Assembly (NCBI GenBank): GCA_973895155.1
Contig: OZ316895.1
Coordinates: 18,175,880-18,239,879 of the forward strand
Length of the DNA stretch: 64,000 bases
Reading direction: 5' to 3'
Origin: Marsupella aquatica
Lineage: Eukaryota; Plantae; Marchantiophyta
Under the pieces are notes generated by a model that saw only the letters and a program-made list of their open reading frames with translations, did no database searches and was not told where the DNA came from. Both the position numbers and the translations under genes were made by a program. Positions 2,523 to 31,370 of this stretch are shown here, piece by piece. Every line of letters begins with the position of its first letter. Position 1 is the first letter of the stretch.

Positions 2523-2777
2523 ATGTGTTTCATGGGTAAAATCTGCAAGCTGATTTCGTTCCTGATCGTCGTGCTGGTCTTGGTCACGTTATTATTTGGC
2601 TTTGGGTGGATTAAGAAAGTGAGTCACACTTGCGTACAAGGCCACTCGATGTCAGGCAATTGCGGGAATGGCTCATTTATTTCCCCTTCGCCCGCTTGGA
2701 CGCCATCATACGCGTCGTTGCATCAAAGCGCGTCAGCTTTCGACAACTACACGACGTCTGCTGTTAGTATACCTTGA
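2523..2777 (+). CDS. small single-pass membrane protein (MCFMGKICKLISFLIVVLVLVTLLFGFGW...), resembling an uncharacterised land-plant MCxxGK-TM family
   Basis: ATG 2523, open to TGA 2777. N-terminal MCFMGK is followed by a ~20-aa hydrophobic helix, FGFGW-KK and a Ser/Pro-rich tail. Family resemblance is from memory. A possible donor AAA|GTGAGT near 2619 means the 3' end could be spliced. Confidence 0.6.
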   Translation: MCFMGKICKLISFLIVVLVLVTLLFGFGWIKKVSHTCVQGHSMSGNCGNGSFISPSPAWTPSYASLHQSASAFDNYTTSAVSIP

Positions 2778-5478: not shown

Positions 5479-8400
5479 TTAATTTATTAGAACCTTTATT
5501 CCAGTTTTTCCAAGCACCAAATATGCTACTAGCAATCCTAAGGCAATGCTGAGACTGTAGGCCATGATTATAATAATAGGCTCCTTCAAACCAACGAGCT
5601 CCAGATGATGGTGAAAGGGCGACATTCGGAACAGGCGACGTCCTTCGCCATACATTTTCTTTGTTAACTTGAAATAAAATACCTGCCATGGCACAAAAAT
5701 CCAGCAAGACAAACCTGAGACGAGCACCTTGAAAATGTTAAAATTGGAACCATACCGTACGACCCATTTCGCTTTACAAGGCACTAAAGATTCCGAGCCT
5801 CCAGTCAGAATGATGGACCAATGACTGAAATCATTCCGCACTCCACTGAAAACAACTATTGTAAGAGGGACATGCAGAAGGATAAAGTTTTTAACACTGT
5901 AAGCGGAGCTCGTCAACAAGAAAGCACACAATACAACACAAGAAAATACCGAACATTGGAACCCTAAACTTTCCATCTTCTCTTATGAGAACATCAGCTG
6001 GGCTTGGCAGATTCCCAAAACTAGACTCTGGCAAATGGCACTCCTCGTAATGATAATGCTAATTTACAAGATATGTGTCTCATTTACTCACTTTGCATAT
6101 TTACTAGACTTGTATACCCATGTAAATATCAGTGTCCTGAAATATCATCCATTTGCACAAAGTGACGACAAGTATTGTGGCAATGAAACCAAGTAATGCT
6201 CAAAAGGCTTGTAAGTGTGAGAGGTATGAAACCAAAACTTAGGAGAACGAGGGTGGAGAGCTCCAGGGCCGAGAGGTTACCTGGCCTATGACTGATAGAG
6301 TTTCAATTACAAATACCCCAGATGCAATAAAAAGAGGAAAGAACATGCCAGTGCAGCATGCCATTGCTGATAAGGCTCCACCTAAGGCCAACGATCCTGT
6401 ATCACCCATGAACACCTTCGCTTTGTACCTATTGTGCACCAGGAACCCAAAACATGCTCCAGCCATTGATGTCCCAAAAACTCCGAGTTCTGCTCAGGCA
6501 AACAAAGATACATGCACCAATTTATCATTGCGTAGATCGGGTTGCAGAATGCGACCTTACCAGAGTCTTCAAGCAGACAAAGACTTTCGTCTTCATGTGA
6601 TGGTCTGTGCCCACAAAATCTTGAGAATATCTACTGTAAGCCCAATATACAATTCCAAGCCTGTCTCAGCAGGACATTAAATGGACAAGGATCTAACGAC
6701 ATGGAGGGAATTGGACCCCCTGAGAAGTCAACCACGATTACATGATCGACATAGAACAAAACGTCAAGACTATAGGCTCCGTACCTGGACAGAGAGGAAG
6801 TACGGCCAATGACATTGCGATGAACGCAACTGCTGCTGTGCCACCAGCAAGTCCATCTAGACCATCAGTCAAATTAACACCGTTACTCATGGCTGCACAG
6901 CAAAATGCTGTGAGGGGCAAATACCATCTGCCCAGGTGCAGAAGTCCAAAGGGAGCTGGAAACCATACCACGGGCTTACTGCACGCAAAAAAGACCTGTT
7001 CAGCAACCAGCCGGACCTTAAAGATGATTGCTTGAACTATAGGGCAAGTTACAGGAGCATAACTGTTGGTCAGCCCAAGCAAACTAACAAATCAGAGGAA
7101 TGTCAATAGGTACAAACTAATAATCTAACTGTCGATTTTTTCATCACAACAAGTGCGTCACTGCAAATCAGAGCCCAGTAAAAGGTATCAGAATCCTATT
7201 TAAGTGCCCCAAGATTACAGTTTATTTAGATGTACAGTTAACTGGTGGTATGGGACGAGCCCCAATCTCACATTTTATGCGGATATGACGCCAACCGAAA
7301 GAAAAAACTTATTCCAATCGCAACCTGCCAATATACCACACATGAAGCTACGGTTGAGTTCCTCGCATGGTGAAGAAATGAAACTGGTGTGAGTCACGTT
7401 CAGCAGTCAAGTTGAGAATAATTTACCTGCATCATAAGTTTGACCACACCAGGGAGGCCATAGTTGTGCTTCCGCCAGAACGCCAGGCTATCGTCCAGCA
7501 ATCCTATTCCGGCCAAGGCAAGTGTAAATATCATGGCTGCCTCAACTTCAATTGAGTTGAAGCCTGTAAAGAGTCCTGCTATTGCCACACCCACTGGGAC
7601 AAAGAATAACCCTCCCATGGTTGGAGTACCGGTCTTGGCTTTATGAGAAGTTGGGCCCTCAATCCTAAATATCTGCACAGCTTTGAAATATTCCAGGACA
7701 GGAACAAACAAGTAGCCCAGAACTGCAGTGACTCCAGCAGAAAGTAGAAATGGTAGAGTAAGACGGAACGGAATAGCAAACTGATCGTTGACCAATATTT
7801 GATAGTCCACCAATACTACTGCACCAGCTGCGAGCAAGAAATGCCCTGTAGTGATAAGGACTCCAACCCTGCAAGAACATGTTTCTTTGATAATAAGCAC
7901 GCACTACAGAAACGATAACCTTTGAACATTAAGTTTGCACAATGGAGCAGACTTACGGTACCAAGTAACATCACCCTCATCTCGAAGGAAATCGATCTTG
8001 CCACGTAGACTCTAGTCCACACCTTGACTTGGTGCTATCCATTTTAATAGCTGGAGCCTGAAATGGCTCGACCGTCGACGAATTTGAAATCATTTTTTCA
8101 GGTGCAGAAATTGTTATCTTTTCCCCATCTTTTTGAGAGCTTGCAGGTGAGGAGAGAATCTTCCAATTCTGAAAAAAAAACGATGGTTACAACATTGTGC
8201 AAAGCGAAGCTAAAGCAGAGGCAGGAAACAAGAAAGAAATACTGTCACCTGCTTGAACTACTGAATGAAATTGAATCTAGATTTCAGATGAATTCACATT
8301 GGAAGAATCGTAAGACAACGGGAATGAAACAGTACACGATTTACATCCATGGACCGTGTTAGTAAAGAAACATGTCGGGAAAATGATTTCTAAGAATAGC

Positions 8401-8998
8401 TCTGATCAAGTACCTCAAGGAAATCTCGGACATGATTCTAGATTTCGATTTTACAAATTCAAACGTTTCCTGAAGGAATACATAATATCCTCACATGTCA
8501 TCGATCGTCAAGTTTAATCTAATCCTGTCTTTGCGGCTGAGAGAACGGAGATGAGTTACAACAAACCTGAGATGCAGCATCCCCAATGGGCTCTTCAACG
8601 CCACCACTCAAACTGCTCTGCCCATCACAACAGTTTATCTCTCGTCTACCAGCAAAGGGGCCAGAACACTTTCTGAGATTAAAAGCATCTCTAAAATTGG
8701 AATCCAAACCTCTGGACCGCTCAAGCTTCCATCTGCGATGACAATGTCGCACAAATGTCACATTTGAGCACCTCAATTGCTCGGTTTTGCCCTGCCTGAC
8801 TATGAACGAGGATGGGTCGCAGCTACTGACACTTCTAGGTTGCTGTGTTGATGTCAATGAGGTAACCTCATGCAGCAGGAGGAAAGACACAGCGTGGCTC
8901 CTACTGGAGTTACAGCACGATATCTCCATCGCCCTCGTTTCTGAAGATGGTGATCCTTTTGGTCCGCGCGACCTAGCGATGCAAGCTCCTGGAGCCAT
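5479..8998 (-). CDS. MraY: plastid phospho-N-acetylmuramoyl-pentapeptide transferase (MraY), 7 exons, 559 aa
   Basis: Exons complement(8567-8998, 8023-8168, 7427-7868, 7272-7324, 6785-6978, 6281-6489, 5479-5682). All are GT-AG and phase-compatible, totalling 1680 nt. Motifs: [49 protein letters not shown]. Ser/Arg-rich N-terminus consistent with a transit peptide. Confidence 0.95.
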
Positions 8999-11900
8999 GC
9001 AAGGCTTCCATCAGACTTACTCCTTCAGCCTGTAAACTCATCCATCCTCGTTCTTAAGACCAGCAATTACACACAATATCCTGTGAATCACAAAGCAAAG
9101 TGGTTTCTTTGCATCCATTCGGTCATGACTAACCTCAAACAGACATTTGAAGACGGAAGGCGTTTGAAGCCAAAAAACTAACGACGGTAAGGAAATCCAT
9201 TTCAATTTTGTGCAGACAGCGTGAGCCCAAATTTGTTTTTCAATTGTGTATATTTTCTGACATTTTCGATATTCTACGCAGTACAAGTTTCTGCTTCATC
9301 CAGCCACATAGAATACGGAATCTGGGAACGTAACACGTTGCTCTAATAATTTTTCATAACTTTCTAAACGTCAGAAGTTCGGATCAAGTTTGGGTAGGAT
9401 CCCAAAGTGTACAAAAAGAGTTTGGGGCAAGCAGGGGGCGGGGCCTCGTAGAGACTGGGCGTCAATTGCCGTTGGGCCTGCTGACCCCCTTAGAAGTCGA
9501 GTCAACTATGTAAACTGATTCTTCGGTGAGTAAATGTAGTCTTTTCCCTCTGATTCTATCGCATGTAGCTGGTGTTGTGTGTATTTTTGTCTGGGCAAAG
9601 GCGCCATTTCAAGGGGCGTACTGGGTGCGGACTAATGGTAGGGATTGCCACCCATTGCATACTACAAGGTTTTGTCGCGTCGATGGCTTGAAAGCCCCAA
9701 GCCGGGAGTTAGTCCGAGTCACTAACTATAGGAATATTCCAACGGTGGAAAACAAATATACCTATGACCAGTACGAGTTGCGTAAGTATTATACCGGTGA
9801 CTATATTGACTTAGCCCGACTTAGGGCTAATCGAGGCCATTACACACCTCCTTGCTCAAACCCTCACCCCTACTGGTGGTCGAGGTCGCCCCATGGAACT
9901 AAACTGGATTTAAGGCCCGGGTTAGGGGCGCGACAGACCAGTACATCCAGTCCTACAAATTCCTACTTGTTCAGTCATAAACTTCATCCTCTGATTCATC
10001 AGATATGTCACTACTACTAGGATCGCTACTGGTCCCCCTCTCCGTGGACTCGGCAGACTCATCTAAATACTGACAGACTGTCCCCGCCTCATTGTCGATA
10101 AACCTTGAACAATCCAGATATCTTCGAGCACCTCTCATTGATCGAAGTCCTTTCGCCTCCCAAGTCAAGACCATAGGAGCTTCATCAACCTGCCTTGCCG
10201 ATGTCTCAGCATAGCACAAAAGAGTAAAAGGCTTCTCAGGAGTAACCACAATGGATTCCTGGACTTCCTTCCGAAGACGAAGTCTCTCCTCAAAAAACCA
10301 ATCCACCCTCCTATCACTGACGCAACCACCGGCATCAGTTGACGAAGAGCAACAAAATGAAGAAAACAAAAGAAACCAAATAGGGAGTCCGACATCAGAA
10401 GAGGCCAAGTACTTTACTCCAGGTCAAATTCGTCTTTCTCGGTTGAAGGCCCAGCCTGTTCATCTCCTGGAATCGTGAACTCATCATCCGACCCAGCGTC
10501 TTGATTACCCTTGGCTGCCTGATTCTTAATCATCTTTGCCTTGCTCGAGTGCCTCTCAAGAACACTGTTTAAATGTTTTTGAGCACAGGAATGGAGAATG
10601 TCCCTGTCCTCAACACCGACAACAAACCTCCCGGAGTATTCTCCGACAGAAAACGAGCTCCCGTCACACACAGTCCAGTCAAGGACTATGTCTTTGGGTT
10701 TCGTGAGGAATTCCATCACGGCTTGCATGAACCCAATTGAAAGCCTGTTTAATCCATGGACCGTGTTAGTAAAGAAACATGTCGGGAAAATGATTTCTAA
10801 GAATAGCTCTGATCAAGTACCTCAAGGAAATCTCGGACATGATTCTAGATTTCGATTTTACAAATTCAAACGTTTCCTGAAGGAATACATAATATCCTCA
10901 CATGTCATCGATCGTCAAGTTTAATCTAATCCTGTCTTTGCGGCTGAGAGAACGGAGATGAGTTACAACAAACCTGAGATGCAGCATCCCCAATGGGCTC
11001 TTCAACGCCACCACTCAAACTGCTCTGCCCATCACAACAGTTTATCTCTCGTCTACCAGCAAAGGGGCCAGAACACTTTCTGAGATTAAAAGCATCTCTA
11101 AAATTGGAATCCAAACCTCTGGACCGCTCAAGCTTCCATCTGCGATGACAATGTCGCACAAATGTCACATTTGAGCACCTCAATTGCTCGGTTTTGCCCT
11201 GCCTGACTATGAACGAGGATGGGTCACAGCTACTGACACTTCTAGGTTGCTGTGTTGATGTCAATGAGGTAACCTCATGCAGCAGGAGGAAAGACACAGC
11301 GTGGCTCCTACTGGAGTTACAGCACGATATCTCCATCGCCCTCGTTTCTGAAGATGGTGATCCTTTTGGTCCGCGCGACCTAGCGATGCAAGCTCCTGGA
11401 GCCATGCAAGCCTTCCATCAGACTTACTCCTTCAGCCTGTAAACTCATCCATCCTCGTTCTTAAGACCAGCAATTACACACAATATCCTGTGAATCACAA
11501 AGCAAAGTGGTTTCTTTGCATCCATTCGGTCATGACTAACCTCAAACAGACATTTGAAGACGGAAGGCGTTTGAAGCCAAAAAACTAACGACGGTAAGGA
11601 AATCCATTTCAATTTTGTGCAGACAGCGTGAGCCCAAATTTGTTTTTCAATTGTGTATATTTTCTGACATTTTCGATATTCTACGCAGTACAAGTTTCTG
11701 CTTCATCCAGCCACATAGAATACGGAATCTGGGAACGTAACACGTTGCTCTAATAATTTTTCATAACTTTCTAAACGTCAGAAGTTCGGATCAAGTTTGG
11801 GTAGGATCCCAAAGTGTACAAAAAGAGTTTGGGGCAAGCAGGAGGCGGGGCCTCGTAGAGACTGGGCGTCAATTGCCGTTGGGCCTGCTGACCCCCTTAG

Positions 11901-13163
11901 AAGTCGAGTCAACTATGTAAACTGATTCTTCGGTGAGTAAATGTAGTCTTTTCCCTCTGATTCTATCGCATGTAGCTGGTGTTGTGTGTATTTTTGTCTG
12001 GGCAAAGGCGCCATTTCAAGGGGCGTACTGGGTGCGGACTAATGGTAGGGATTGCCACCCATTGCATACTACAAGGTTTTGTCGCGTCGATGGCTTGAAA
12101 GCCCCAAGCCGGGAGTTAGTCCGAGTCACTAACTATAGGAATATTCCAACGGTGGAAAACAAATATACCTATGACCAGTACGAGTTGCGTAAGTATTATA
12201 CCGGTGACTATATTGACTTAGCCCGACTTAGGGCTAATCGAGGCCATTACACACCTCCTTGCTCAAACCCTCACCCCTACTGGTGGTCGAGGTCGCCCCA
12301 TGGAACTAAACTGGATTTAAGGCCCGGGTTAGGGGCGCGACAGACCAGTACATCCAGTCCTACAAATTCCTACTTGTTCAGTCATAAACTTCATCCTCTG
12401 ATTCATCAGATATGTCACTACTACTAGGATCGCTACTGGTCCCCCTCTCCGTGGACTCGGCAGACTCATCTAAATACTGACAGACTGTCCCCGCCTCATT
12501 GTCGATAAACCTTGAACAATCCAGATATCTTCGAGCACCTCTCATTGATCGAAGTCCTTTCGCCTCCCAAGTCAAGACCATAGGAGCTTCATCAACCTGC
12601 CTTGCCGATGTCTCAGCATAGCACAAAAGAGTAAAAGGCTTCTCAGGAGTAACCACAATGGATTCCTGGACTTCCTTCCGAAGACGAAGTCTCTCCTCAA
12701 AAAACCAATCCACCCTCCTATCACTGACGCAACCACCGGCATCAGTTGACGAAGAGCAACAAAATGAAGAAAACAAAAGAAACCAAATAGGGAGTCCGAC
12801 ATCAGAAGAGGCCAAGTACTTTACTCCAGGTCAAATTCGTCTTTCTCGGTTGAAGGCCCAGCCTGTTCATCTCCTGGAATCGTGAACTCATCATCCGACC
12901 CAGCGTCTTGATTACCCTTGGCTGCCTGATTCTTAATCATCTTTGCCTTGCTCGAGTGCCTCTCAAGAACACTGTTTAAATGTTTTTGAGCACAGGAATG
13001 GAGAATGTCCCTGTCCTCAACACCGACAACAAACCTCCCGGAGTATTCTCCGACAGAAAACGAGCTCCCGTCACACACAGTCCAGTCAAGGACTATGTCT
13101 TTGGGTTTCGTGAGGAATTCCATCACGGCTTGCATGAACCCAATTGAAAGCCTGTTTAATCCA
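8345..13163. repeat. near-perfect 2407-bp tandem duplication (8345-10751 / 10752-13158)
   Basis: ORF sets are identical and offset by 2407. ATCCA microhomology at 8345, 10752 and 13159. Only 3 substitutions noticed (~8818/11227, ~9004/11411, ~9436/11843). Confidence 0.97.
10974..11405 (-). other. duplicated MraY coding exon 1 (with its upstream promoter region)
   Basis: Same translation as 8567-8998, with intact ATG and CAG|GTTTGT donor. No exon 2 in this copy. Confidence 0.9.
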
Positions 13164-16100
13164 GCAACAACCGCTGCTGGACACGGGTCAGTCTTAGGGT
13201 AACAAACACTCAACATTGACTTATGCCTGGCATCTTTCGAAGACGTCAAAGGAACATACGCTGGGTCTTTAGGAATCTTAGCATTATATTCCACACGACA
13301 AAAAACATCCAGGATGAGAGTGCACACCTGAACAAACCATAATACTTTAGAAATATTGAAAACTTTGTTAGCGAGCTCGCTAGCATTAACTGAGTTGAAA
13401 AACATGGAAAATTAACAGGTGAAACCGACCATATTGAGAAGTGGAAAATTAGCATTTTGTTATCGACATCGCTAGCATCAAACATATCAGAAAATTGAAG
13501 GGATAATTACCTCGATATCCATATTTGCCCTCCATAAAGGGGTAGACAACAAAACGGTATATTGTTGAGCATGTTTGAATTTGTTTTTTTTCTTGACTGC
13601 CGTAAATATTTGCCTCAAGTGATTGAAATCCAAGCTGTGCAACACAGCAACATATCCATCGTCTGAGAGCATTGGTCTCATCACTACAAAAAAATAATAC
13701 GGCAGTTTCTTGCTCCAAACATTCCAAGAAGGGACTTGTTTGTCTATAACGCGTGTTCTATGCCCAGTTGGACGAGAAATGAATCCCAAATGTGCTCCAA
13801 TCCCAACATAAGGCTTTCCATTAATTATGACAGGGTTCGGGTACTCTACGCTCTTTGACATCCCAGTATTCCATCGATCTCCATTGCCCATCCAAGATGG
13901 CCTCACTTTACTTACGCTAATTGAGTTTGCAGTATCGGTCAAATTGCTGCAAGCGAGGAAATGTCTCTGCCCATCCATCTTCAAACCACACATCCGAGCA
14001 ACACCTTGAGCAACTGAAACTTCTTCATCGTTCGAATCTAAAAGAATTTGGATATTCTGCTTCCGTTTCAAACGCTTTATACTTCCTAAATCCATTGTGC
14101 TCTTTGTTGTAACTTTGGCATTTGGGGACTGAGGTTCCTCACCATCATCTGCTCCGCTCTTCAAACTCTCAGAAGCAACTCCCTTCCTCCTCTCTATGAA
14201 GCAAAAGCCATTAGTGTCTGTATATTCGACACACATCGGGACTTGAAAATAAAAAGTAACAGAAAATTGACAGACTTACTTGGCTTCCCGGATATCTGGG
14301 ACCCATCTTTAGATGTGTCCTTCAATGCTCCTTTTCTTGGCTTCCGAGCTCGACTCCTATCCACTATGGCAGCTACACCAAGACAAGCCTTTTCCATTGC
14401 CTCGCAACCACCAACTTCAGCATCAGTGGGTGCCAATTTGGACTCCGAGACGGGCTCCGAGATGTAAGATTCCGGAAGGAATCCCCAATTGATCATGTGA
14501 AGAGCTGCTTTCTCTGTAGTGTCAAAGGTCACAGACCATTTGTCCGAGTCCAAATACCATGGACAGTGAAGAACCTCCCACTCACTCAATCTCCTCGGAG
14601 CTTCATTTCCCTCGCAAGGGAACATACAATATTCCCCAAACTTATCACCTATAGGGTCTGTAATGCTGTACATTAGTTAGAAATGATGGAAATTTTATAA
14701 ATTTTAAACTTTTTCTAACTCAAGGTACAATCTAGTTACCTTTTGTAGCAATTTAGATCAACTGAACACTTAACCTAATGTTATGCTTCATCGGAGGCTA
14801 TTGCCTCTATTGGACAAGGATCGCCAATATAAATCCTTGCTCTTTACATGCTACCAAGAAAGAAGACTGGACATCATTGGAGAAGCAATGCATACTAGAA
14901 GATTCAAGAACCGGACTCCAAAACACTTCTTCAGCAAGAATGAGCTCTCTGTGCAATTATCACAATCAGCCGATCTCTGCTATTTTAGTTAAATAGATAA
15001 AGTGGTCAGAAAAGTCTCATACTTTTTCAGGCATTAGTAGTTATGTAGTAGAATCATCCCTGAAAGTTTCATCTCAAACCTACATGTGGTTTGAAAGTTA
15101 AAATTATTTTAGTTTAGCTATTTTTTTACATAGCCGCGACTTCGCCGACGCTTTGAGAAAAGTCCTTTGTATTTTTGGACGCTTTGAAAAGCGTCCACCC
15201 AAGACCACGACGCTTTGAGAAGCGTCCGCCACCCAACCAATTGTACTCCGATGCTCTGCAATCCACATGAGGAGCGACGCCCACAGAAGCATCTGCTACC
15301 CCGAAGGTGACCTCGACACTGTGACGCCCACTAAAGCGTCCCGCCCGGAGCCCAGAAAATGGATGCTGCGACCAAAACCTCGAAATTCAGCCGACGCTTT
15401 CTGAAGCGTCCATAAAAGTCCTTTGTAGTTTTGGACGCTTTCTGAAGCGTCCACTATGTTCCCGACACTTAGAAAAATTTTCAGTTTTCGCACTTTTATA
15501 ACACCGCGCCACTTTTACCGATTTATTTGAGGCACTTAGAAGTCTCAGAAAAGTCTGAAACTTTGTCAGCATAGAGATTATATGTAGTAGAGTACCCTAG
15601 AAAAGTTTCAACTCATTCCGACTTTTAGTTTAGAAGTTAAAATTAGATTAAGATCACTGTTTATTAGTTTTACCGCAAACATCGACGCTTTGCAAAGCGT
15701 CCGCTCAAACCTCGACGCTTTGAGAAGCGTCCCCTGCATTTTTGACACTTTCAGCAGTGTCCATTCACTTTTCAAGGATGACCGTCATTAAGTTTATTCA
15801 AGACCCTTTAGATATGAAAAGACATGTCCTTTCAGTCTCTCAGTCTCCTTGCGTTCCTGCTAGCCTATATGAAGTAGAATTTGTGTCATTTTCAAGGGTG
15901 AAGAAATAAAGTAGTGCCTGTGGCATGTGCTGCAGTACTGGAATCACCTTTGCAAAGCTTCTGTGTGTTTTCGTATGGTATGGAGCTTGCAAATACAAAG
16001 GAATTCTTCTCCCTTCCTTGGTCTGAATGATTGAGAGTTTAGATCATTGAAGTAAAATTACTTATATGAAGTTGAATCTCAGAAGTATGAGGGAATAGAT

Positions 16101-18505
16101 TCCTTAAGTGGTGACAATCCATCTTCTTGAGTTCTTGATGCATAGTTTTTGGCATGACATTGCTTGTGCACGGATGCAAAGATTGTTACTCACCAATTAC
16201 CTGTGACTTCAATTTGATCATGATGGTGTTTATTATTCGTGACTCAGAGTACCGACTGGATATCGAAGTGATTGATTACTAGTTTCTTCTGAGTACCTTT
16301 GGAAGGAAAAGTTGAGACGTGTTGACGGCATTTTAGTAATCATCCTAGTACAGTAATCCATTCCAAAAATGTTCTTACGGATATACCACCCAAATCACAT
16401 CAAATGAAGTATTGATGAGAAGTTACCTTGGTGTTTTCCAGACTCCCTCATCATACCTCAAGATTTCATTGTGTTTTGTTATTTGTTTCCATTTTATTAA
16501 TTGCATTTACAATGTTAAGCAAACATTCAAATCTATGCCTTGCTGAGCAATCATAGTAAAAGGCTCAAACCTATGTTTTTTTTTTGTGACCTTAGTCATT
16601 CATAAGTGTTAAACGATAGAAAATCATTCCTTTCTTGTTCTTCCATGGGATCGAATACCGAGTTTTGGGCATTAAATGTTGATTTATGTCCTTAGTGCAA
16701 TACTACAGGGTCCTCTTTAACTCCTGCTATCCATGGGGAGAAGCAAGCTGGGTAGGACCACCAATAGAATTTGTCTGCTACTTCTCTGTCTACAAAAAAT
16801 TGATGCGTGTATCTCTTCGCTCTCCTCCAAAACAATGCAATGTCGACCTTCTCTCCTGTCTTGGGGGGACAAATCTGCTTGAAGAAACGAGTTTTCACAC
16901 AAGTTTGAAAATCCTCAAAATCCTCCTCAATGTCAAGGATTAGCAAAGCTTTCATCTTCTCTAAAGACGTAAGGATCCTCAACTCAGGGACAGAAGGCAT
17001 TACCTCAAAAACAATTCCAAACATGAGGGAAGACGCAATTGACTCGACTTGCTCCCACACTGCCCAACGATGAAGCCAAAGCTTAGTCTCACTATCTGAG
17101 AATTGACCTGGATGAAAGAATTTCTTCCGAAGCTCAAGACAACACTATGCCTCTAGGAGTGTACATCGGAGCTCTGGGGATAAGGAGGTCACACCAATGA
17201 ACAATTGAGCTCAATCAAGACCACAAGAAATATTTCCCCTTCCTTTGTCATCTGTTCTCTAGGCCTCCTTTCTCTCATTCTCACAGTAGTTATGCATTTT
17301 GACACATTTCTTGAAAAAGTCTCCAAACTCTGGATTTAGTAATGGACCGATCTTTGGAACTTTCACATTCCAATCAGCGAGTTGTTCTTTCATCATCTCA
17401 CAGATTGCTAAGTCATGTGCGGCCTTAGAGAGGGGCTCACCTTGAGCTTCCTTAAGAGCAAATTTCTTCTTCAGGTCCTCGGTCTGCCATGCAATGTTAG
17501 CAGCGGATAGTATATAAGTGCAGGCATCCAGCGTCATGTTCTTCGAATACCATGCCGCCTTCCGCACGTTTTTGCCATCTTCTACTGGAAAAGTTTGTAA
17601 TTCTCAGAGTCAATGATATCCTTGTAAACGGACAAGTCATTGTTCAGAATCTTCTGGACGCGTTCAGCCTCCAAAACCCAGGAGTTCTCTACATGACATT
17701 GAGTTAACCTGCCACAACATTCCCATGTTAGCGAGATTGCTAGCTGAAAGTGATATGGTAAAAAAGGAATTTCAGAAAGATATTATCCTGAGAACTTGCA
17801 CCTGTTCAATGCGTGCATTGCCGACTCAATCTGAACAAAAGAGTTCTTTTCACCCTTAAAAATCTTGCAGACTACTCGAGGATGGTACTTAATATCGTCA
17901 GGATGCTCTTCCACCAGTTGGCTCCACAAATACAATCAGTGGTTTCCATCAAAAACACAGAACATTTTGTCCTTGAGGATCTGGAAAGAAACATAAGAAT
18001 CACATTTGTGCTCAAACTCCTTGTTCTACAACACCCAAATATCATCCCAAGTTTTGCGGATGGCATCGGTACACATCTGGATTTCTCCATCCTTGTTTGT
18101 CATCTGAACGTAAAACCAAGGCGCATCTTCGATGTAACCCTACATTTTGAACTCCGACTTCAATGTGTCTATTGCAGTGGAATCCTTTTGTAGAGACCGA
18201 ACAATCTGCATGTTCCTCATCCGGCAGAGAGGAATTTTAGGGGGAGCCAATGCAAATCCGAACTCATTCACTTCGAATGAGTGAAGATGTCGGTTTATGA
18301 CAATCGTGTAAGGTTCCGAAGTGCTTGGATCAAACACAGGAGCCAATACATCTACCGCCGTCACCATCTTCGGTCGCCTTGGAGTCTTCAATCCCGTTGC
18401 AAGCGCTTTCTTGTTAGCTGTCGACCTGGTTTCTCTCCTTGTTGACTCCCTTGACTGAAATGATCCTCTCAAAGAAATACTCTCTGGAGACAACGATGAC
18501 TCCAT
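12821..18505 (-). pseudogene. ParB/Srx-like N-terminal domain fused to a C-terminal beta-class N4C/N6A DNA methyltransferase-like domain (transposon accessory gene), interrupted by a solo LTR
   Basis: The frame from ATG 18505 reads ...KMFCVFDGNH*LYLW (17950-17936; likely CGA>TGA of DGNHR). Introns at ~17709-17800 and 13328-13510. Removing LTR 14659-16707 plus one TSD copy joins GVKEDP|IGDKFGEY in frame. The C-terminus FMQAVMEFLTKPKDIVLDWTVCDGSSFSVGEYSGRFVVGVE (motif ~13111-13016) matches the motif X/I/II pattern of N6_N4_Mtase, preceded by PSWN..RPMLSDDGYVAVLHS. Confidence 0.6.
14659..16707 (+). mobile_element. solo LTR (2049 bp)
   Basis: TGTA...TACA termini. 5-bp TSD GGGTC at 14654-14658 and 16708-16712. 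Excision restores the host frame. Shares internal sequence with 29104-30887. Strand is a guess. Confidence 0.9.
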
Positions 18506-19136
18506 GAAATAAACCCCTTCGGAGAAGAGTGGTCGTGTCCGGAGACTGCAGCAGTTACACGCGTGAAAAATGTCTGCATTGCACTGCCTTTGGCAAAATA
18601 GAACAGCCGTACAAACTGTTACGAACTCCCAACAAAGCCTTACACAGTTATGATAGGGAACACTAACACCGATCGACAGTACGATGGAAGGAATAACAGA
18701 AATCTCCTGGCAACGACCACTAGTTGTACTTTTTGGAAAACCCAAAGAACAACCTTCACAACAAGGATAATCTTATCTATACAAAATGGTCCAGGTGTCA
18801 ACCGTATTTTGTACCGTTGACATTATGGTACCCGTTGACTATTCCCAACGTAATCCTAACGATAAAATTCGTAAAAATTTGATTGACTTTTTGGCTAGCA
18901 ATATCACTGGCATAAAAGGCATGATACAAATATCCTTCAAAAGAGGTCAAAACAACGGTTCATTTGTTGAAAAACATGCATAACCAAGCTAGCAAGATCG
19001 CTAGCATGGGACCCGTCCCAATCCGTTGAGTAAAAGACAAAATAACGGTCAAATCAATGGGAACTGTCTGACAATTTGTTTGATTAGTTGTTTCCGTTGG
19101 GATGAACAAAGATTTGGTCCTCCAAATAAGAGTCGT

Positions 19137-22100
19137 ATGGACGATTCAAAACATAGTCATTGTATTTTTGTATCCTCGGCAGAGATGATCTCGATGAATT
19201 CCAAGGTGGTTTTGGAGCGTAGAATCACGGGAGATGTGGTGGTACTGCCAAGTACCCCTGGTTCGTTGGAGGTGAGGGTAATAGAGTCCTTCCTTGCAAC
19301 TCATTTTGGAATCCCAAAAGATGACCTCATCATGAAGTTGTTTGAGTTGTATTCTCAAAAATGGACCACGGAGTCACCAATTGAGAGAGGACAGTAGTAC
19401 TTCCGGCAAAGTCTGGACATTGAAGGTTGGATCTTATGTCGAGGTTCTGTCCAATAAAGATGACTTTCCTGATGTCATTTTGGAACCGATGGATTTAGCT
19501 CCCGTTAATCAAACTCCTGTGATTGATCTTGGGAGGCCTCCCAAAGACATTGCTCTCGAGGTCATTGACATATCTCCAGATAGTCTAAGGCAAGACACAT
19601 CTTGTGGGTTGGCGAAGTCAGGAGGTGATTCCAAACCTGAAGGGTTAGCGACAAATTTGATTCAAAGGACTGGGGATAGCATGACCACAGTGTATCGGAT
19701 GAGTGCCTATGACGCTTTTATCAATATCAATGGAGCAAGTGAACTTGCACAATTTAGAAGAGGGAATCAATGGAACGAATGTCAGGTTTCGAATCTGCCA
19801 TCAACATACAATGGTAACGTTGTTTTTGAACTTCCTCCAGTCGAGGGGGCCGGGCGTGGAGGAGGTCTCTAAGATATGGATCGAGAGAAGGACAGCTATC
19901 CTTGGACGAGACTTGTCACTACATCTATGAATTTGAAGCCAAGGTTTCATTGGGCTGTGTCGAAAGTTTGTTGCGTTGGCGTTCTTGAATGCCATAATTT
20001 GGGTTGCCGGAAGTTGAAACATACTGGAGTGAAAAATGACTGCGCTTTCAGAGGGAAAGGGTTGCTGCTCAGTGACATCTTTCGTCTTGGAGAGTAAGTG
20101 AGTGAGGGCGGACTCGTCCGTGGCTTCTGTGAAGAAGAGAGGCCTCTCTGTATTCAAGATTGTCCGGCAAAATTGTTGTATGTATACCCTAAGCCAGGTT
20201 TGGAGAGTCACATTTCAATGCATATGTCCAGATTGGCTGTGCATATGGGATTTCATGACCACCCCGTTTGGAAGGGAAAATCTTGTTCTACAAGAAAAAT
20301 AGCGGAAGATGTTGTTTTAGGGGTCCATAGGTTGAATCCAGTCTCAACTCTTGCACGTCTGAGAAACCAGTCAATTGGGAACCTAGTCTCCCTATTGCAT
20401 CTAGAATCATCTCAGTTGTCGAGAGAAGAACAACAAGAAATTTGGAGTTCGATCGGAGTGGTTTCGACCGCTCCAAAGTTCCAAGCTATTCTTTGCAGTG
20501 TGAAGATGGATAATCCCAAAAAAGGAGAACTTGACTCACTTTGTGAAATGCAATCACGTAATAATTTCCCTTTTGTGCAAAGGTACCTGTTTCCTGGTCA
20601 AGGAAACATAAATGATCGAGCCCATATATTCAAAATGAGTACAAATGGTCTTGGATCGGGTGTGGAAATTTTGAGGAGCATGGAGTCTGGAGGAGTATTG
20701 GAAGGTTCTTGGGTGAGTTTTGATGTGATGCATCGTATCACTACTGGATGGTTGACCTTCAGCGCACACTTCTATGACCATAATTACCGCGCTCTGTGTA
20801 CAATTTTCACTTGCAAGTTAAGAGCCAAAGACACAGAGTCGCTTGAGACTGCGTGGAGGTTAATGGTAGATGTCACATCCGAGAATGGAGTCAATAATCC
20901 CATTATTGGAGGATTCATAGCAGACAATGCGGAGGCTGGCTGGATTGTTGTACGAAGGGTATTTTTTGGGGGTGTAAGAAATCCTCTGAAAGAGCATAGT
21001 GATGCTTTCCATTTCTCTCAATCCCTCAGAAAACACACTTTGGAGGGGATCAAGGAAGGATGTCATGCGGAGCACTATAAGATGTGGGAGAAGTTAAGAA
21101 TTGCTCCAACATACGTCGAAGCATATCGTATAGCCGATGACATTCAAAATGGTGGAAAGAAGGGAATTGTCACCCTTCCAAGCTTAAATCACTACAAGGG
21201 TGGATTTCATGGTGGGTTGTGCGGTGGAGACAATGGGGTAACTTTATTTGGGTGGTAAGTATTGGTCCATTATCTGTGATGCATTTACGCTAGCGAGATC
21301 GCTAGCCATAACACTTCTTTTTGTAAAGTTTTTGGTCACTGATTGAAACATGAGGATGCCTCAAGCTAGACATATCGCTAGTGAATACAAGTGTTAACTC
21401 TATTTATTTTTCAAACGCAAACTGCGAAGGAGTTTGCTTTGATGCCAAACTGTGCGGGAGCTGAATCTTGTCACGCATCAATGCGTTCGTGCCAGCCGAA
21501 GAAGAAAATTGGTTTGATGGAAGCTTGTGAAGTTGACCAGAATCGAGCAGCTGGACAAATTGCAGCGTTCACTGCATACTTGGAAGGGTGTCATTGTGGC
21601 AATGGTCCTACAATATTTGAGCTGGCCTATTGAAATGCAGATACAATGGGGTCGTTGGATGCCTATGAGAAGGCATCCAATCTACTATTTGAATCCTCTA
21701 GAAAATATGAGTTCTATAGAACAGTGCCTTTACATGGAGATCTTAGAACAACGTCAGGGAAAAGGAAGGGTAGTGCTTCTGCTTCTATTCATGAAAACGA
21801 TTCTCATCGACATGATAAGATATTGCGCACAGTGGCATCGCTGTCTAGTTCGAAAAGAAAAAATCTTTACACCGAATTTAGTAACTTTAGCGGTGCTTCT
21901 GATATTGGTGGACCTTCTGACTTTCCTGAAAATGAAGACAATCCCACTTGCCATAGACCTCCCCTTCCTCGTGAAGTTATTAATATATCAGATGATACCA
22001 GTGAAGAACGAAGCCGTGGAGATGCAACACAGGACCCGAACTACGTTGGAGAAATACCACAGTCTCAAAATAATCGGGATGAAATTTGGGATGCACCCCA

Positions 22101-22998
22101 AAGGATCCCTTTTATTGAAGAGGTTGATATGACGTATGGGACCTGGCAATTGAGCGGAGTGGAAAAGGGAGTGGACCTGTTTGCAACGGACGAGTGGACC
22201 AAAGTGTGTTTGGAAGAGATGAGTGCAGGAATCTCATCAAAGAAACTGGAATGAAGGCATTCCGGGCAGGAGTGGTTGGTGTTGCCATTCACGGATTGAG
22301 GTTGTCATCTCCACATTGTCAGCTTCTGTACTTCTGTCCAAATAATAAGTGCCATAAAACAGGTGGCAGAAGGACTCTTGCCCAGCTTCCGGAACCACCT
22401 GAGGCATTGCAGGTCTAGCGTGGGACCAGGCTGACCCCAACAGAGATTGACTTTCTTCTTCGAAACAGGTTTAAAATCAGAGGATTATCATACTCTGATC
22501 CAGCACCGATCGGGTCATTCTCCTCTCCAAATCATGTTGACCTCTGAATTGATGTGAATGCCTTCCCAGAAAGAGTTGACATTGGTTGTCCAGACCGTAG
22601 ATTCAAGACCCAGAATGGGAAAGGTGTTCGTCAACGTTTCCAGAACACCCCGGAGCTTCTCAAACACATTCGATCTGCGACTGACAAACATATGAGTCAT
22701 TGGAAGTGAGAAGATATGCCTCGGAAATGGGTGGGGATGGCAATATCTTATCGTCACTCACGAGACAGATTCTAAAATTGCACACGAGTACTGGGTCCAA
22801 GTGTGTTGTTTTCCTTCTTGCTCATGTGATGACTTCTACAAGAGACACACGAGAGGAAGACCCTACATGTCTTGTAAACACCTCCTGTGGGTGTACTTAA
22901 ATAAGTTCTCACTGAATTTAGAGAGAGACAATCTTGTGAAGCAGCCAATTCTGACTGTTGCTGAAGTGAGGAGTTTGATTCCGTTGCAGTGTAGTTGA
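19137..22998 (+). pseudogene. Mutator-like DDE transposase with N-terminal Cys/His zinc-finger region and C-terminal SWIM finger
   Basis: Core motifs WVSFDVMH, GFIADNAEA, DAFHFSQSL (CxxH position) and NCAGAESCHASM. SWIM motif SCSCDDF..SCKHLLWV (22816-22893). Zinc finger C..ECHNLGC..C..HMGFHDHPV. In-frame stops at 19870, 20095 and 21631, several frameshifts, and an intron from donor GTG|GTAAGT at 21255. Confidence 0.8.
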
Positions 22999-23425
22999 CT
23001 TAATCTCTATTATCCGTTGAGGTGAACATTTCCGCGTCCCTCATTTTGTCGCCTTCTGGTTTTCAGAACAGAGGAAGGTCCTCTACCTCACTAATTATAT
23101 TGTGTATGTAATGTTAGCGAGGGTCTATTACTATTTAGTAAGCATCGGCATTGTTGTTTACTTTGCTAGCGATGTCGCTGGCATTAAACTCGTGAAGTAA
23201 AGTATAAGGTTGGTAAATGGTTCCTTTTCGACGAAGTTCTTCATAACTTAGAGTTCAATAACTCATGTGTTGCAATTGTTTTTTGGATATACATACGAGA
23301 AAACAAACCATTTTAGACATGCATAGTTTTACTAGCGATGTCGCTAGCAATAATAGGACAGGTTGGAACACTACAATCGGACAAACTTCAGAAGATGTTA
23401 TTGCAAAATGAACAAAGATGTTCTG

Positions 23426-23999
23426 TCATATAATTCTGTTAGACATGAAATGTCCAATAACGCTTTGCAGATCCGAGGTCCAGGAACCAGACTGAGTATA
23501 CAATACACTGTTACAAAATGTATTTGCCCCTACAAGATGGACTACTGGTATTGACTTCTGTTCAAGGGCTCGCTGCCTTGTAGGCGTCGGAATCAGAGTC
23601 AGAGACTGTATCATAGTCGGAGGAAGCGAGGACGTTTTCTGTCCAATAGTTGTGGATCTCGAGGTCCCTCCATTATGACTCCTCCTCTTCTCTCTTGCGC
23701 TTCTCAGAAACCCCCTTAGAGACAGGGACATTAGAGCGAGAAGATGATGGTGTTCGGGAGACCGCCTTGGACAATGTCTCCTTACAAGGTGTGGCGAGCT
23801 TTGAGTCCTTGGAGACAACGGGAGCCACGCGACTAGAAGGAGATGTACTCCTCTTCGTTGTGTCCACAGAACTCTGCTTCTGCTTCTGCTTTGGTGGAGT
23901 GGACCTTGGCGGGGAGTCCAGTGGACCGTCAATTTCGGCGTTATATCGCCGAACTTCCAGAACCCATTTTGGAGCAGCTCCACTCTCGTTCCGTGCCAT
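23426..23999 (-). pseudogene. possible third accessory ORF of the element (Ser/Pro/Lys-rich, NLS-like KRKREEES)
   Basis: ATG 23999. The low-complexity frame continues past a stop into acidic SDYDTVSDSDSD. It is flanked by palindrome copies. No domain recognised. Confidence 0.3.
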
Positions 24000-24923
24000 T
24001 TCTCCCAGAAACAGAAACAGAAACCAATGCGATTCAGATTACTTGCAATCTTATGCAAAGTCTACTTATGTTGACAAACTAAAAAGAGAATGACAACGAG
24101 AACCTGAGAGAATAACAAACTGCAGGTGGAAAACACATGACAGAGAACTGAGATACCTCGATCCGGATCTGACTGCCAAATGTATGGTGCTTGTGATCAA
24201 GCAGGAACTCGATGTAATGCTTCGACGACAGTAGCTTCGACGACAGTAGCAGAAGTCACAAAAGGGCTTTGACTCCCACGAAGACAACAAGAGAATCGCA
24301 CTTCGAGTCCGCGATGAACACAATGAGAGCCCGAAAGAGTGGCCGAAAGGGAATGAATGGAAATGTTTCTCAAGGTGTGAGGGAGATATAGGGGATGGTG
24401 GATAGCGGGAGATCCTTCCCAACGGATTGGGATCTTGTCTGTTGGGTGTTCTAAGATCTTTTATGTTGCGCATCTCATGCTCGGCGCCCGGATGAAGCTT
24501 TGGATTTTGTCCTTGGATGCGCTCCCGAGATTTTTTCAGTCAAAGGACATTATTCCCTGTCCGTTATCATTATGATTTATTCACGTCGTTAACGATCGCA
24601 CGCCAAAGTACATGCGAGAATTATGGGTGGCATGGTTGCTAGCAATTTCGCTAGCCTGACGTATGTTCAGATAGTATGGTCACTTAGAGTTTCTTTAAGT
24701 GGCCAGTTGTGCGTGAAATACTCGATATGCACAAATGTACCGTCCATGGCAGGTTTCATTATAGAGTAGAATATTGATTTTTCTGTTATTCAACAGGTTA
24801 GTTTTGTCCTAGCGAGTTTCAAGTCATGCCAGCGAGGTGATAACCATGCCAGATTTTGCATATATGGACGAGAAAATGTTCCCGTGCGAGGAATTTTTTT
24901 ACTGTTTCCTCGCACGTTACAAT

Positions 24924-24998
24924 GACCCGCCTGCAACTCAGTGGTAGAGCACTACTATGTACATGAGAGCTCCTAGGTTCAATGTCCATGTTGTTGAC
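24924..24998 (+). pseudogene. degenerate tRNA-like sequence (tRNA pseudogene or SINE head)
   Basis: A-box-like AACTCAGTGGTAGAGCA and B-box-like GGTTCAAT at tRNA spacing. Stems do not pair well. Confidence 0.45.
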
Positions 24999-28338: not shown

Positions 28339-31300
28339 GTTTTTTCTTTTTTTCCAAGAAATCCCCAAAACAAGGGGGGGGGGGGGGGGGGAACCCAAAA
28401 CAACAAACAAGGGAGCAAACACCACCCCAGCAAAAGGAAGCCCAAAAAGGACACCACGGACACCCCCAAAGACCACACAAAGACCCTAATCGGGCCATGG
28501 AAGCCAAGCACGCCACCGGAGAGTAGCAACCAGCGGCAACCAGAAGAAAGGACCCCAACAGGTCCACCACCTGGAGCAAGGGTGTCTACTACTCCACTGG
28601 CCAGGGGGCCTAGTATCACTACAACACTCACTATCATCCAAGGAGCAAGGGTACTGGTGGTCAGTCAACCAACACCAAGGCCCAGATTCATCATTCAGAG
28701 TACAGTGGGTCCTGAGATAGTTCCACTCCCTATTCCTACTCCTATCCCAACCACTACCTAACAGAGTCATCCCCAAGTGAGTACCACAAAGAGGAGGGTA
28801 ACAATCAAGGGCCGAAGCCCAAGCCAAGCACGAGTAATCAGGCATCATTGCTAAAGTCCAAGTTAAGAGCTTGGGGGATCTCATTGGTCGCCCAAGGTTT
28901 AAGGACCTCATGGAGCTCATGGATAGCCCGCTGGAGTTGCCGTGCCTTCTTGTGAGACTTGCAGCTATCTCTCATGGAGTGAAGGTGGATCTCCGTCTGT
29001 CGCAAGATGACCCACCCAGGGATACGCCCGAGAAATTGGGCATAGCTAGCAGCATTCCTCTCATTCCAAATGTGGCAGCACAATTCAGAGAGAAGGATCA
29101 GAGTGTGGAAAGGCATTTTTGTTGAAAATTATGAATAAGAGCTTATTCGGGATTTTTTTTCCTTTTTGGAGCAAAGCATGACACTTCCTGAATCGTCCAC
29201 TCTCTTTTGACGCTTTATGAGGCGTCTGCCTTAACTACTCTGTTTCAAGCAGCTCAATTCAGGACGCTTTTTGAAGCGTCCCTCGCGATGTAAACGCCGA
29301 CCTCAGCGTTCCGGTTTCAAAGGCAAAATAGGCTCGACGCTTCCAGAATCGTCCATATATGATGATGGAAACCAACGCTTTCTGAAGCGTCCTGAAGGCG
29401 TCCACAGCAATACAAGTCCTGACTAAGCGTCTCCAATCCAGTACAAGACACGACGCTTAGCAAGGCGTCCAATAGTGTCGACACCCCGCTACCGAATCTT
29501 ACCACGTGAAACCTGGACGCTTTCTGAAGCGTCCATATGAGAAGCTAGAGGGACGCGACGCCCTCAAACGCGGCACCAAGTTCTGAAGCGTCCGTGACAA
29601 ACACCAAGCAATACGAGACGCTCGTGAAGCATTTGCTACCCGCAAACCTGAAGATGGACGCTGCCGACCCATACATAAAATGTTGGACGACGCTTCTTGA
29701 AGCGTCCACAAAAGTCCTTTGTCATTTTCAACGCTTCCTGAAGAGTTCACCAAAGTTCTCGACACTTCGAAACATTTTTCATTTTCTCACTTTTTATTAC
29801 AATATGACACTTTTACCGATTTATTTGAAGTACTTAGGAGTTCTAGAAAAGTCTGAAACTTTGTCACCATAGAGATTATATGTAGTAGAGTACCCTAGAA
29901 AAGTTTCACCTCATTCCAACTTTTAGTTTAGAAGTTAAAATTCTAACAAGATCATTGTTTATTAGTTTTAGCGAAAACACCAAGGCTTTGTAAAGCGTCT
30001 CTCTCTTCCACACTTTACTTTTTCCACCTTTTATGAGATTACCTTTTAGATATTGAGGTTTGAAAGGACATGACCCTTCACTTAGAAGTCTACACCTATA
30101 AGACCCCTCAATTTACCCATCTTCAAGGGGGACAAAACTTTATTCACACAGAAAATTCTGAATAGTTCTCCACCTTCCAATTTAACAAGAATGATTTGTA
30201 TGGAAGTAAAGCATATGTTATCATTTGTAAATGAATTCAGGAGAGATCCCTTTTGGTGACTGAGTTATAATCACAAACCTTTGAGATTCCCATCAAATTC
30301 ACTGCTAGGCTTGCTTGCTATGTCAAGAGTCGCTAGCTAATTCGAGGATAGATGATGAAATTTAAGGAGAAAAATTCAATTTTCAGAGTATCAGAGTACC
30401 GTTGTTTTACTTTGGCATATGTATCAGAGTTTGATTTGAATTGCGTACCGTTGATAATCAAACCATGTTGACGGTATTTTAATATATATCTCAGTGAAAC
30501 CAACCATAAATGTACTGTGGGTTTGGTGAGCAAAAGAGTCCTTTTAATTCACATCTTTGTGATATCAGAAGGAAAGAGAGAATCTGATTTGATAATTTTA
30601 ATCCTGTCTATACTAAGACCATAGTCCTTTCTGAAGGAGTGGCAATAGCAAATTAAACAATATCTATTCACATATTTGACTCCCTTTTGATTTCATAACT
30701 CAAAGTTATCTTTTCCTTGTGTTTTGTTAATTTTATCCTTTGTTTGAGATTGAAAGATTTAGAGCAGAGCTCTAAACCACTCAAACTTGTTAATTTATTC
30801 AATCTATTTCCAATCTGTTCTTAAAGGGACCGAAACCCGAGTTTATAAAGATATTTTGTTACTTTGTGTTCTTTCGATCATACAACACAGAGGGCCAGGT
30901 TTCCTTTTCTGCACACGAATAGCTCCCTAGAGAGAATTGTATAGCGATCCAAAAGTAAACCTCAGGGCACTAGAGTGGCGCAGGAGGAGTTGCACTTCCT
31001 GCCACTGGCCCTGTACTCTGCAGCAGCCAAAAAATAAATGTTCAGTTTGTTCAAAGTGATAGTGGCAACGTGCACACAGGCCGTCGCTCACCTCCCACTT
31101 GCTAGCTCTGCCATTAGTGAAAAACCCATGTTGAAGTAACCGCCAAATGAAGAAACGGACATGGGGCATAGTCCAGCCTCCCCACAGTTGTTTCCAGCGT
31201 TGTTGCCAGGACTCCGCCATCCCAATTTGGCCCCATCGACGGTTCAATTTGGTTGTCTTACGGAACAAGGGAGGAGCACTGCACCCACCTGCGGTTAGGG

Positions 31301-31370
31301 AAATTCCATCCCTGGTTCTTCCCAGTCCAATTCCACTTCCAACCAGTTCTGTGGAAGAGTTGGTCGTCAA
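28339..31370 (-). mobile_element. 5'-truncated L1-type LINE (zf-RVT region plus 3' UTR), interrupted by a solo LTR
   Basis: WKQLW..PHVRFFIWRLLQHGFFT..CARC..EQTEHLFFGC, then KRKPGPL|ILLSELCCHIWNERN after removing the LTR. A-rich tail on the minus strand at ~28339-28352. Confidence 0.85.
29104..30887 (+). mobile_element. solo LTR (1784 bp), related to 14659-16707
   Basis: TGT...ACA termini. TSD CAGAG at 29099-29103 and 30888-30892. Shared block AGAGATTATATGTAGTAGAGTACCCTAGAAAAGTTTCA and GACGCTT..AAGCGTC repeats. Strand is a guess. Confidence 0.9.

Follow-up and report, generated by a model that had tools for sequence, protein, structure and literature searches.

A 64,000-nucleotide stretch of the genome of the liverwort Marsupella aquatica (assembly GCA_973895155.1, contig OZ316895.1, positions 18,175,880 to 18,239,879 of the forward strand) was analysed; it is called the window below, and positions are counted from its first letter. 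The window holds a dead, left-truncated copy of a repeated transposon, in which a transposase gene and a long accessory gene are arranged head-to-head. The accessory gene encodes a predicted ParB-like domain near the N-terminus and a DNA methyltransferase-like domain at the C-terminus. An 18-bp palindrome, absent from the account of the element in an earlier note on this DNA, is dispersed through the non-coding parts of the transposon.

Organization of the Two Genes

The start codons lie at 18505 (minus strand, accessory gene) and 19137 (plus strand, transposase), with 631 bp between them, where the earlier note had placed the two genes. The accessory gene comprises five exons, lies on the minus strand between 18505 and about 12378 and contains an inserted solo long terminal repeat (LTR). 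Its splice sites and phases are consistent, and it amounts to about 1200 codons.

17802-18505, minus strand: first exon of the accessory gene; encodes the disordered N-terminus together with the ParB/Srx-type domain; broken by three in-frame stops.
16708-17708, minus strand: accessory gene exon 2, first part; helical region; match to P0040 (E 3e-20).
14659-16707: solo LTR in exon 2 of the accessory gene; TG..CA ends, 5-bp target duplication.
14280-14653, minus strand: accessory gene exon 2, second part, beyond the solo LTR.
13511-14193, minus strand: third exon of the accessory gene; encodes a linker plus the opening half of the methyltransferase-like domain; S-R-P-T at the position of motif IV.
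12825-13327, minus strand: fourth exon of the accessory gene; encodes the half of the beta-class methyltransferase-like domain that bears motifs X and I, the latter degenerate.
12378-12723, minus strand: probable last exon of the accessory gene, an acidic tail; inferred from canonical GT..AG splice sites, in frame.
18506-19136: head-to-head intergenic spacer; palindromes at 18894 and 18988.
19137-21260, plus strand: first exon of the transposase; a zinc-binding-like Cys/His region precedes D-(67)-D-(26)-DxxH; interrupted by two stops and two frameshifts.
21261-21410, plus strand: transposase intron, ends approximate; palindromes at 21289 and 21365.
21411-22998, plus strand: second exon of the transposase; candidate catalytic E, then a linker of low complexity and a SWIM-like CxC..CxH at the C-terminus; several stops.

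The accessory gene of the window is a dead copy because stops and a frameshift interrupt exons 1 and 2 (in exon 2, a frameshift near 17580 and three stops). The transposase copy is dead as well, with stops and two frameshifts over its two exons, so the description of the copy as dead stands. The ParB-type motif, recorded earlier as FCVFDGNH(R), is read as FCVFDGNH followed by a TGA stop at the arginine position of DGNH-R, and the C-terminal TKPKDIVLDWTVCDGSS..GRFVVGVE is present in exon 13327-12825. The gene can indeed be rebuilt across the solo LTR, which is skipped exactly by empty-site contigs in runs X2 and X5 (joint 14652-16707). Another piece of this LTR family, 82% identical, lies at 29639-29999, near a decayed retrotransposon pol region (about 31300-34300). 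For the last exon (12378-12723), homology support was absent in the family search.

Homologues of the Accessory Gene

A HMMER search of 1.84 billion representatives returned 223 proteins at E ≤0.001 and 68 at ≤1e-10. Thirty proteins were looked up individually: 27 belong to the accessory-gene family and three are transposases. The named family members among them come from Riccia sorocarpa, Adiantum capillus-veneris and A. nelumboides, and the rest are assembly products. Intact homologues, which the earlier note had proposed to seek by homology, exist in the liverwort Riccia sorocarpa (as dispersed copies) and in the Adiantum ferns. The Riccia gene models number 12 and include the full-length intact P0166 (R1sor_027256) of 1207 amino acids. 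They are spread over six contigs and some are 94-95% identical to one another, as expected of mobile cargo.

The window exons are collinear with the intact Riccia proteins P0166, P0050 and P0168 in tblastn comparisons, at E 8e-41 for the N-terminal half and E 4e-4 to 8e-3 (one at 0.073) for the C-terminal exons; the window copy matches P0168 at E 2e-36. An independent link between both ends of the gene is provided by the Logan products P0100, P0202 and P0203 (156 amino acids), in which the start of the ParB exon is joined straight to the methylase motif I region, which suggests internally deleted copies. In the Adiantum capillus-veneris gene model P0117 (KAI5065344.1) a NIF/FCP1-like phosphatase domain (E 2e-12) is added, either as a real fusion or through a gene-model merge.

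In a quick tree of 116 rows (118 aligned rows minus 3 too short, plus the window row), the position of the window row lacks strong support, and neither an origin nor a transfer is therefore proposed. Phage tblastn with the accessory protein gave three short matches only (E 4e-3), and therefore no prokaryotic donor is named. No match was obtained in a word-index search with the ParB region.

ParB-like N-terminal Domain

In the family alignment an IPLCR..VR segment is seen along with L..F...GY and [DE]GNHR..AW, and A-M..N comes last. The DGNHR-like motif hardly varies among the aligned rows (G 95%, N 99%, H 94%, R 84%). Among 150 matches it reads DGNHR in 71, EGNHR in 14 and a variant in 15, and the pattern is unmatched in 50, many of which are short fragments.

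The AlphaFold model of the Riccia protein P0168 (118 sequences) has a block of predicted local distance difference test score (pLDDT) 85-98 at residues 11-170 and is mostly confident to about residue 440. With this long query, the top three Foldseek rows are ParB, Noc and Noc, at E 0.14-0.17 and none below 0.001. In an unbiased VIA search of 48,161 chains, the matches listed for the N-terminal domain are KorB (Z 7.4, root-mean-square deviation (rmsd) 2.7, 95 residues aligned) and PadC (Z 6.8). The wide VIA listing is crowded by generic helices, and matches to residues 374-450 were ignored as generic helical hairpins. In a second structural comparison the top 14 rows are all of the ParB family (Z up to 8.5); the best of them, Myxococcus ParB (Z 8.5, rmsd 5.2, 182 aligned), spans both the nucleotide-binding and the DNA-binding parts. 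On the domain alone, ParB, Noc and KorB superpose at rmsd 2.3-2.7 across 93-96 residues (Z 7.4-8.5), and superpositions that reach the DNA-binding (helix-turn-helix) part of ParB have an rmsd of 5-6. The Pfam family ParBc has zero matches over the 118 homologues, Pfam gave no match at all for the pieces of the window, and the ParB alignment profile matches no PDB sequence. The structural model supports a ParB/Srx nucleotide-binding fold in the N-terminal domain, as the earlier note had proposed from the motif. The shared fold by itself is no proof of function.

Methylase-like C-terminal Domain

The Riccia domain matches PF01555 (P0166, E 5e-5) and the phage methyltransferase family phrog_3008 (E 2e-7). 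Atlas assigns N6_N4_Mtase clusters with a score of 0.95, the top family matches agreeing in 10 of 10; another Atlas lead, for the exon-3 part, was discarded at a score of only 0.75. Exon 4 of the window alone matches the DpnA-type adenine methyltransferase 5HEK (E 0.022) and NF010253 (E 0.0012; 15-19 bits against a curated cut-off of 244), and no match was seen to reach a curated family cut-off. N6_N4_Mtase gave one match in the Pfam scan of the 118 homologues. The motifs follow the beta-class order, IV before I. Homology of the C-terminus to beta-class N6/N4 methyltransferases (PF01555) is thus supported at the level of sequence, and the amino-methyltransferase assignment made earlier is retained. 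Exon 3 also matched nitrous-oxide reductase (E 0.16), which was dismissed as coincidence. For the methylase domain the AlphaFold prediction, built on 10 sequences, has a pLDDT of 34.

The state of the catalytic motifs bears on activity. Motif IV is readable in seven alignment rows, three further rows not covering it, and reads SRPT (window), DLPT (twice), DMPS, DMPT, DFPI and DVPF; the canonical (D/N/S)PP(Y/F/W) is found in none of the seven. The aromatic residue that stacks the target base is kept in one. Such stacking is described for the enzyme N4CMT (PMC10406627). Motif I (FxGxG) is glycine-rich in three near-identical Riccia rows and degenerate in the window copy. Active methylation by the accessory protein appears doubtful, because the (D/S)PPY form of motif IV is missing in all seven readable copies, and the earlier suggestion that the module marks DNA by methylation is not upheld.

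Palindromes in the Non-coding DNA of the Element

The palindrome GCTAGCGA-NN-TCGCTAGC occurs 10 times in the window at ≤3 mismatches, compared with 0.05 copies expected, and none of 100 shuffles reaches 10; the pattern was derived from the counted copies, so this chance figure is post hoc, and the margin is large.

13367, 13459, 17727, 18894, 18988, 21289, 21365, 23165, 23331 and 24638 (span 13367-24655): palindrome copies, all non-coding.

The accessory-gene introns hold three copies; the spacer, the transposase intron and the stretch downstream of the transposase hold two each, and the remaining copy is near the right end. All ten are within the element and in non-coding DNA, which makes up about 25% of the element. 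No copy was found elsewhere in the window (the other 52 kb), even when four mismatches were allowed. Departures of the arms from the consensus are nearly all C-to-T or G-to-A, which may reflect decay of methylated DNA. At one related transposase locus, L001, the only one compared, three perfect palindromes with 7-bp arms identical to those of the window copies and another centre are situated in the same transposase intron. The candidate palindromic site would accordingly differ between related families.

Transposase

Transposase homologues numbered 28 among 8,000 scored candidates, and the only named ones are two from Calypogeia fissa. D-(67/68)-D is found in 18 of the 28, as is DxxH 26 residues further on; the rest are fragments or variants. 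The candidate E after the intron is common to the window transposase and L001. We take the D-(67/68)-D spacing, DxxH and CxC..CxH to be of the Mutator type, characteristic of Mutator-like elements (MULE). The Pfam families MULE and SWIM match neither the window pieces nor the transposase homologues, and the transposase profile matches no PDB entry. The designation as a DDE/SWIM transposase therefore stands as a reading of motifs and has no Pfam match behind it; from these motifs the element is likely of Mutator type. Target duplications of MULEs are given as 8-11 bp (PMC6446971); none is readable in the truncated element.

The same transposase family is represented once more at 47497-48028 (minus strand) by a fragment in a more advanced state of decay; no ParB-like gene was found beside it in a profile search of the window.

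Extent and Surroundings of the Element

24884-24928: right-hand end of the element; reads GGG.. on the minus strand, with an internal hairpin; apparently common to many short elements.
11910-12341: LTR-like piece of higher depth, ending in CA, at the expected left end; left boundary approximate.
23429-24040, minus strand: third reading frame, Ser/Lys-rich and of low complexity, convergent with the transposase; contig depth below that of the two main genes.

The right end of the element is defined at 24928 by contig exits: in four runs from three studies, 39, 13, 36 and 18 contigs leave at this position into unlike flanks (agreement 0.35-0.43). A left terminus and a target-site duplication were not found in the window search, and the best-scoring terminus pairs of the left-end search were rejected as chance, since they leave the 24928 end unused. 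The place of the left end is presumably occupied by the LTR-like piece. The span 12821-22998 given for the element earlier takes in both genes except for the probable extra exon (12723-12378), and the element runs beyond it to its right end. Summed contig depth, which is not a copy number, is 93-187 in the flanks and 1,800-8,300 over both genes and the spacer in run X1 (LTR pieces excluded), and run X2 is alike; the element is repeated.

The terminal 45 bp (24884-24928) have a contig depth far above that of the element body. Loose contig ends suggest that many short hairpin-like elements, possibly non-autonomous derivatives, share the right end. The frame at 23429-24040 is possibly a further accessory exon; it has no Pfam match. 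A tRNA-like short repeat, repeated itself in the runs, directly flanks the right end (24929-24983; no tRNA was called there by ARAGORN), and telomere-like CCCTAAA units lie beyond it near 25020. At the other side lies a 2.4-kb tandem duplication of 99.8% identity (8340-10756 / 10748-13163). The duplicated DNA includes the 3' end of the accessory gene together with the LTR-like piece and low-depth DNA on the flank; the duplication may have arisen recently, or the assembly may be in error here.

The other genes of the window are plant nuclear: PsaL, a MraY-like gene, and a U-box/ARM gene, with fragments of retrotransposons besides. The frame at 48411-48845 (plus strand) is weakly BRCT-like (E 0.034), and the frame at 49348-50001 (minus strand) presumably corresponds to the C-terminal part of an EnSpm/CACTA transposase, which it resembles.

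Proposed Role of the Accessory Protein

The intact accessory protein likely binds the palindromes of its own element and likely helps to keep the element active, probably without methylating DNA; we give this reading an even chance of being right. A ParB-like dimer would recognise the 18-bp palindromes of the family, as bacterial ParB does parS, and could perhaps load as a nucleotide-gated clamp and then spread along the element. The methylase-like domain, probably inactive, would serve as a DNA-binding or shielding module. The outcome would be local anti-silencing or transposition licensing, as performed by VANC in VANDAL elements. The comparison with VANC, already drawn in the earlier note, is supported and gains weight because the palindromes lie in non-coding DNA. 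Each functional step of this self-recognition is inferred; what was observed is the layout of the element with its lesions, its repeated status, right end and palindromes, and both domain homologies in intact relatives.

Several points weigh against self-recognition without methylation. The structural Z-scores are middling, with identities of 8-14%. All seven readable copies retain two residues of motif IV, the first (D/S) and the proline, and Riccia still has a glycine-rich motif I. The named accessory homologues come from Riccia and Adiantum and the named transposase homologues (2 of 28) from Calypogeia fissa, and the pairing with this transposase is unproven outside Marsupella aquatica. Finally, transposases themselves can activate cognate copies in a sequence-specific manner, according to a preprint (bioRxiv 2026.08.24.746577), so the palindromes could be transposase sites.

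If the palindromes were such sites, the ParB-fold protein could act in transposition, for instance by bridging distant ends or by targeting insertion, and not in silencing. The N-terminal Cys/His region of the transposase may bind DNA, two palindromes are inside the transposase intron and one is near the right end, and ParB-type clamps bridge DNA. However, only one of the ten palindromes lies within 1.5 kb of the known (right) end, where the hairpin motif is a different one. This explanation is considered unlikely.

Alternatively, the protein could be an active DNA amino-methyltransferase which, guided by ParB to the element, writes N4-methylcytosine (4mC) or N6-methyladenine (6mA) and thereby marks or protects the copies. 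Homology to PF01555, phrog_3008 and the Atlas N6_N4_Mtase clusters, the beta-class motif order and the residues of motifs IV and I kept as described above agree with such a writer, and some active phage enzymes carry DLPY-type motifs. The absence of a canonical motif IV in the seven readable copies, the loss of the stacking aromatic in six of them and the degenerate motif I of the window copy argue against it, as does the retention of TSPPY in the active 4mC enzymes of Marchantia. An active writer is judged quite unlikely.

The two genes could also be parts of separate mobile units that are nested or neighbouring by chance. No contig among those listed spans both start codons, and this copy lacks its left end and target duplication. 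Among the loci retrieved, none contained the two genes together. Metagenome loci gave 0 of 41 candidates with a single-protein query and 1 of 76 with the alignment, the latter a 2-kb contig too short for linkage. Viral contigs gave 0 of 30 candidates and prokaryotic genomes 0 of 42, and no Calypogeia accessory gene was among the 30 cluster look-ups. Similar cargo is, moreover, described as moving between superfamilies in algae. Nevertheless, contig depth stays raised without a break from one gene through the spacer to the other, parts of the spacer are bridged by contigs from other copies, and the same palindrome is found in introns of both genes; chance adjacency is very improbable. It is likewise very improbable that the palindromes are intronic RNA hairpins or relics of tiny mobile insertions unrelated to the ParB-like protein: five of the ten are intronic and the perfect L001 copies would fold, but the other five are intergenic or subterminal and the remaining 52 kb of the window holds none.

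Comparison with Known Systems

The nearest counterpart is Sola1-1_Ec32 of the brown alga Ectocarpus (PMC12477816), in which a gene for a ParB-like and N4/N6-methyltransferase protein of about 1100-1200 amino acids lies on the strand opposite a DDE transposase gene, and for which a self-binding, self-modifying hypothesis was put forward. Sola1-1_Ec32 has a Sola-1 transposase, a 4-bp target duplication and AACCG termini, whereas the present element is from a land plant, Mutator-like and with a GGG terminus. The likeness noted is one of architecture; palindromes and the state of the catalytic motifs are not mentioned in the accessible part of that article.

In red algae, Plavaka elements carry PAG2 and PAG3, and the ParB genes of PAG3 adjoin inverted-repeat arrays (bioRxiv 10.1101/2025.02.11.637652). 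The same Bostrychia preprint describes ParB-oxygenase and methylase-SET cargo, also on Mutator elements of Chondrus. A ParB-like protein near inverted repeats and PF01555 cargo are common to these systems and the present one, and PAG cargo swaps transposon superfamilies. In PAG2/PAG3, two separate genes encode a ParB fused to a 2-oxoglutarate oxygenase and a methylase fused to SET, and the repeats form tandem arrays; here a single ParB-methylase fusion is accompanied by lone palindromes dispersed through introns.

The present element resembles the VANDAL elements of Arabidopsis in its likely Mutator type, in having an accessory gene and in the short motifs of its non-coding DNA, which vary from one related family to another. 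In VANDAL21 the motifs bound by VANC21 are short and lie in introns and in intergenic and terminal non-coding parts (PMC5735166). These motifs are 8-9 bp long, non-palindromic and often tandem, unlike the 18-bp palindromes, and VANC is not described there as a ParB or methylase protein; anti-silencing is demonstrated for VANC and proposed here. No plant-transposon accessory family of Pfam is among the matches to the 118 homologues.

The bacterial proteins ParB, Noc and KorB and the phage fusions of ParB with N6_N4_Mtase resemble the accessory protein in the predicted N-terminal fold, the GxxR-type motif and a palindromic candidate site, and the phage fusions also in the beta-class methylase domain at the C-terminus. 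In contrast to them, the accessory gene has introns. Its product of about 1200 amino acids contains insertions within the ParB-like domain, an extended middle part that is helical and disordered, and a non-canonical motif IV; no ParA partner was seen. ParB-helix-turn-helix proteins fused to Dam-type enzymes are reported from chlorophytes and chytrids (PMC4738411). Marchantia MpDN4MT1 and bdelloid N4CMT likewise contain a eukaryotic beta-class amino-methyltransferase domain of prokaryotic type, but they are domesticated host enzymes with an intact SPPY and 4mC activity, whereas the present domain is transposon cargo, fused to ParB and degenerate in its motifs.

The earlier note had left novelty to be checked. 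The ParB-methylase transposon accessory gene itself is already known from algae, through the Ectocarpus case; no report of such a gene in land-plant transposons was found in the literature searched, whose coverage excludes most subscription journals, and the land-plant variant is new.

Significance for Land-Plant Transposons

ParB accessory genes of algal transposons are hypothesised to act against silencing or for self-targeting, and the present finding extends this class to land plants, with a methylase domain which may be a pseudo-enzyme. Since a sequenced liverwort has intact copies that are nearly identical to one another, and the candidate site is precisely defined, the hypothesis can be put to the test in Marchantia or Riccia. 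A bolder form, which we regard as possible yet doubtful, is that a widespread and so far undescribed family of large transposons in liverworts and ferns runs a ParB/parS-like self-recognition, in which the nucleotide-gated clamp, loaded at family-specific palindromes, would spread over the element and bring along a methylase fold that would write a non-canonical mark or block host 5-methylcytosine. If true, this would be a second, bacterially derived anti-silencing system of land plants, independent of VANC, and would provide a programmable tool for chromatin targeting.

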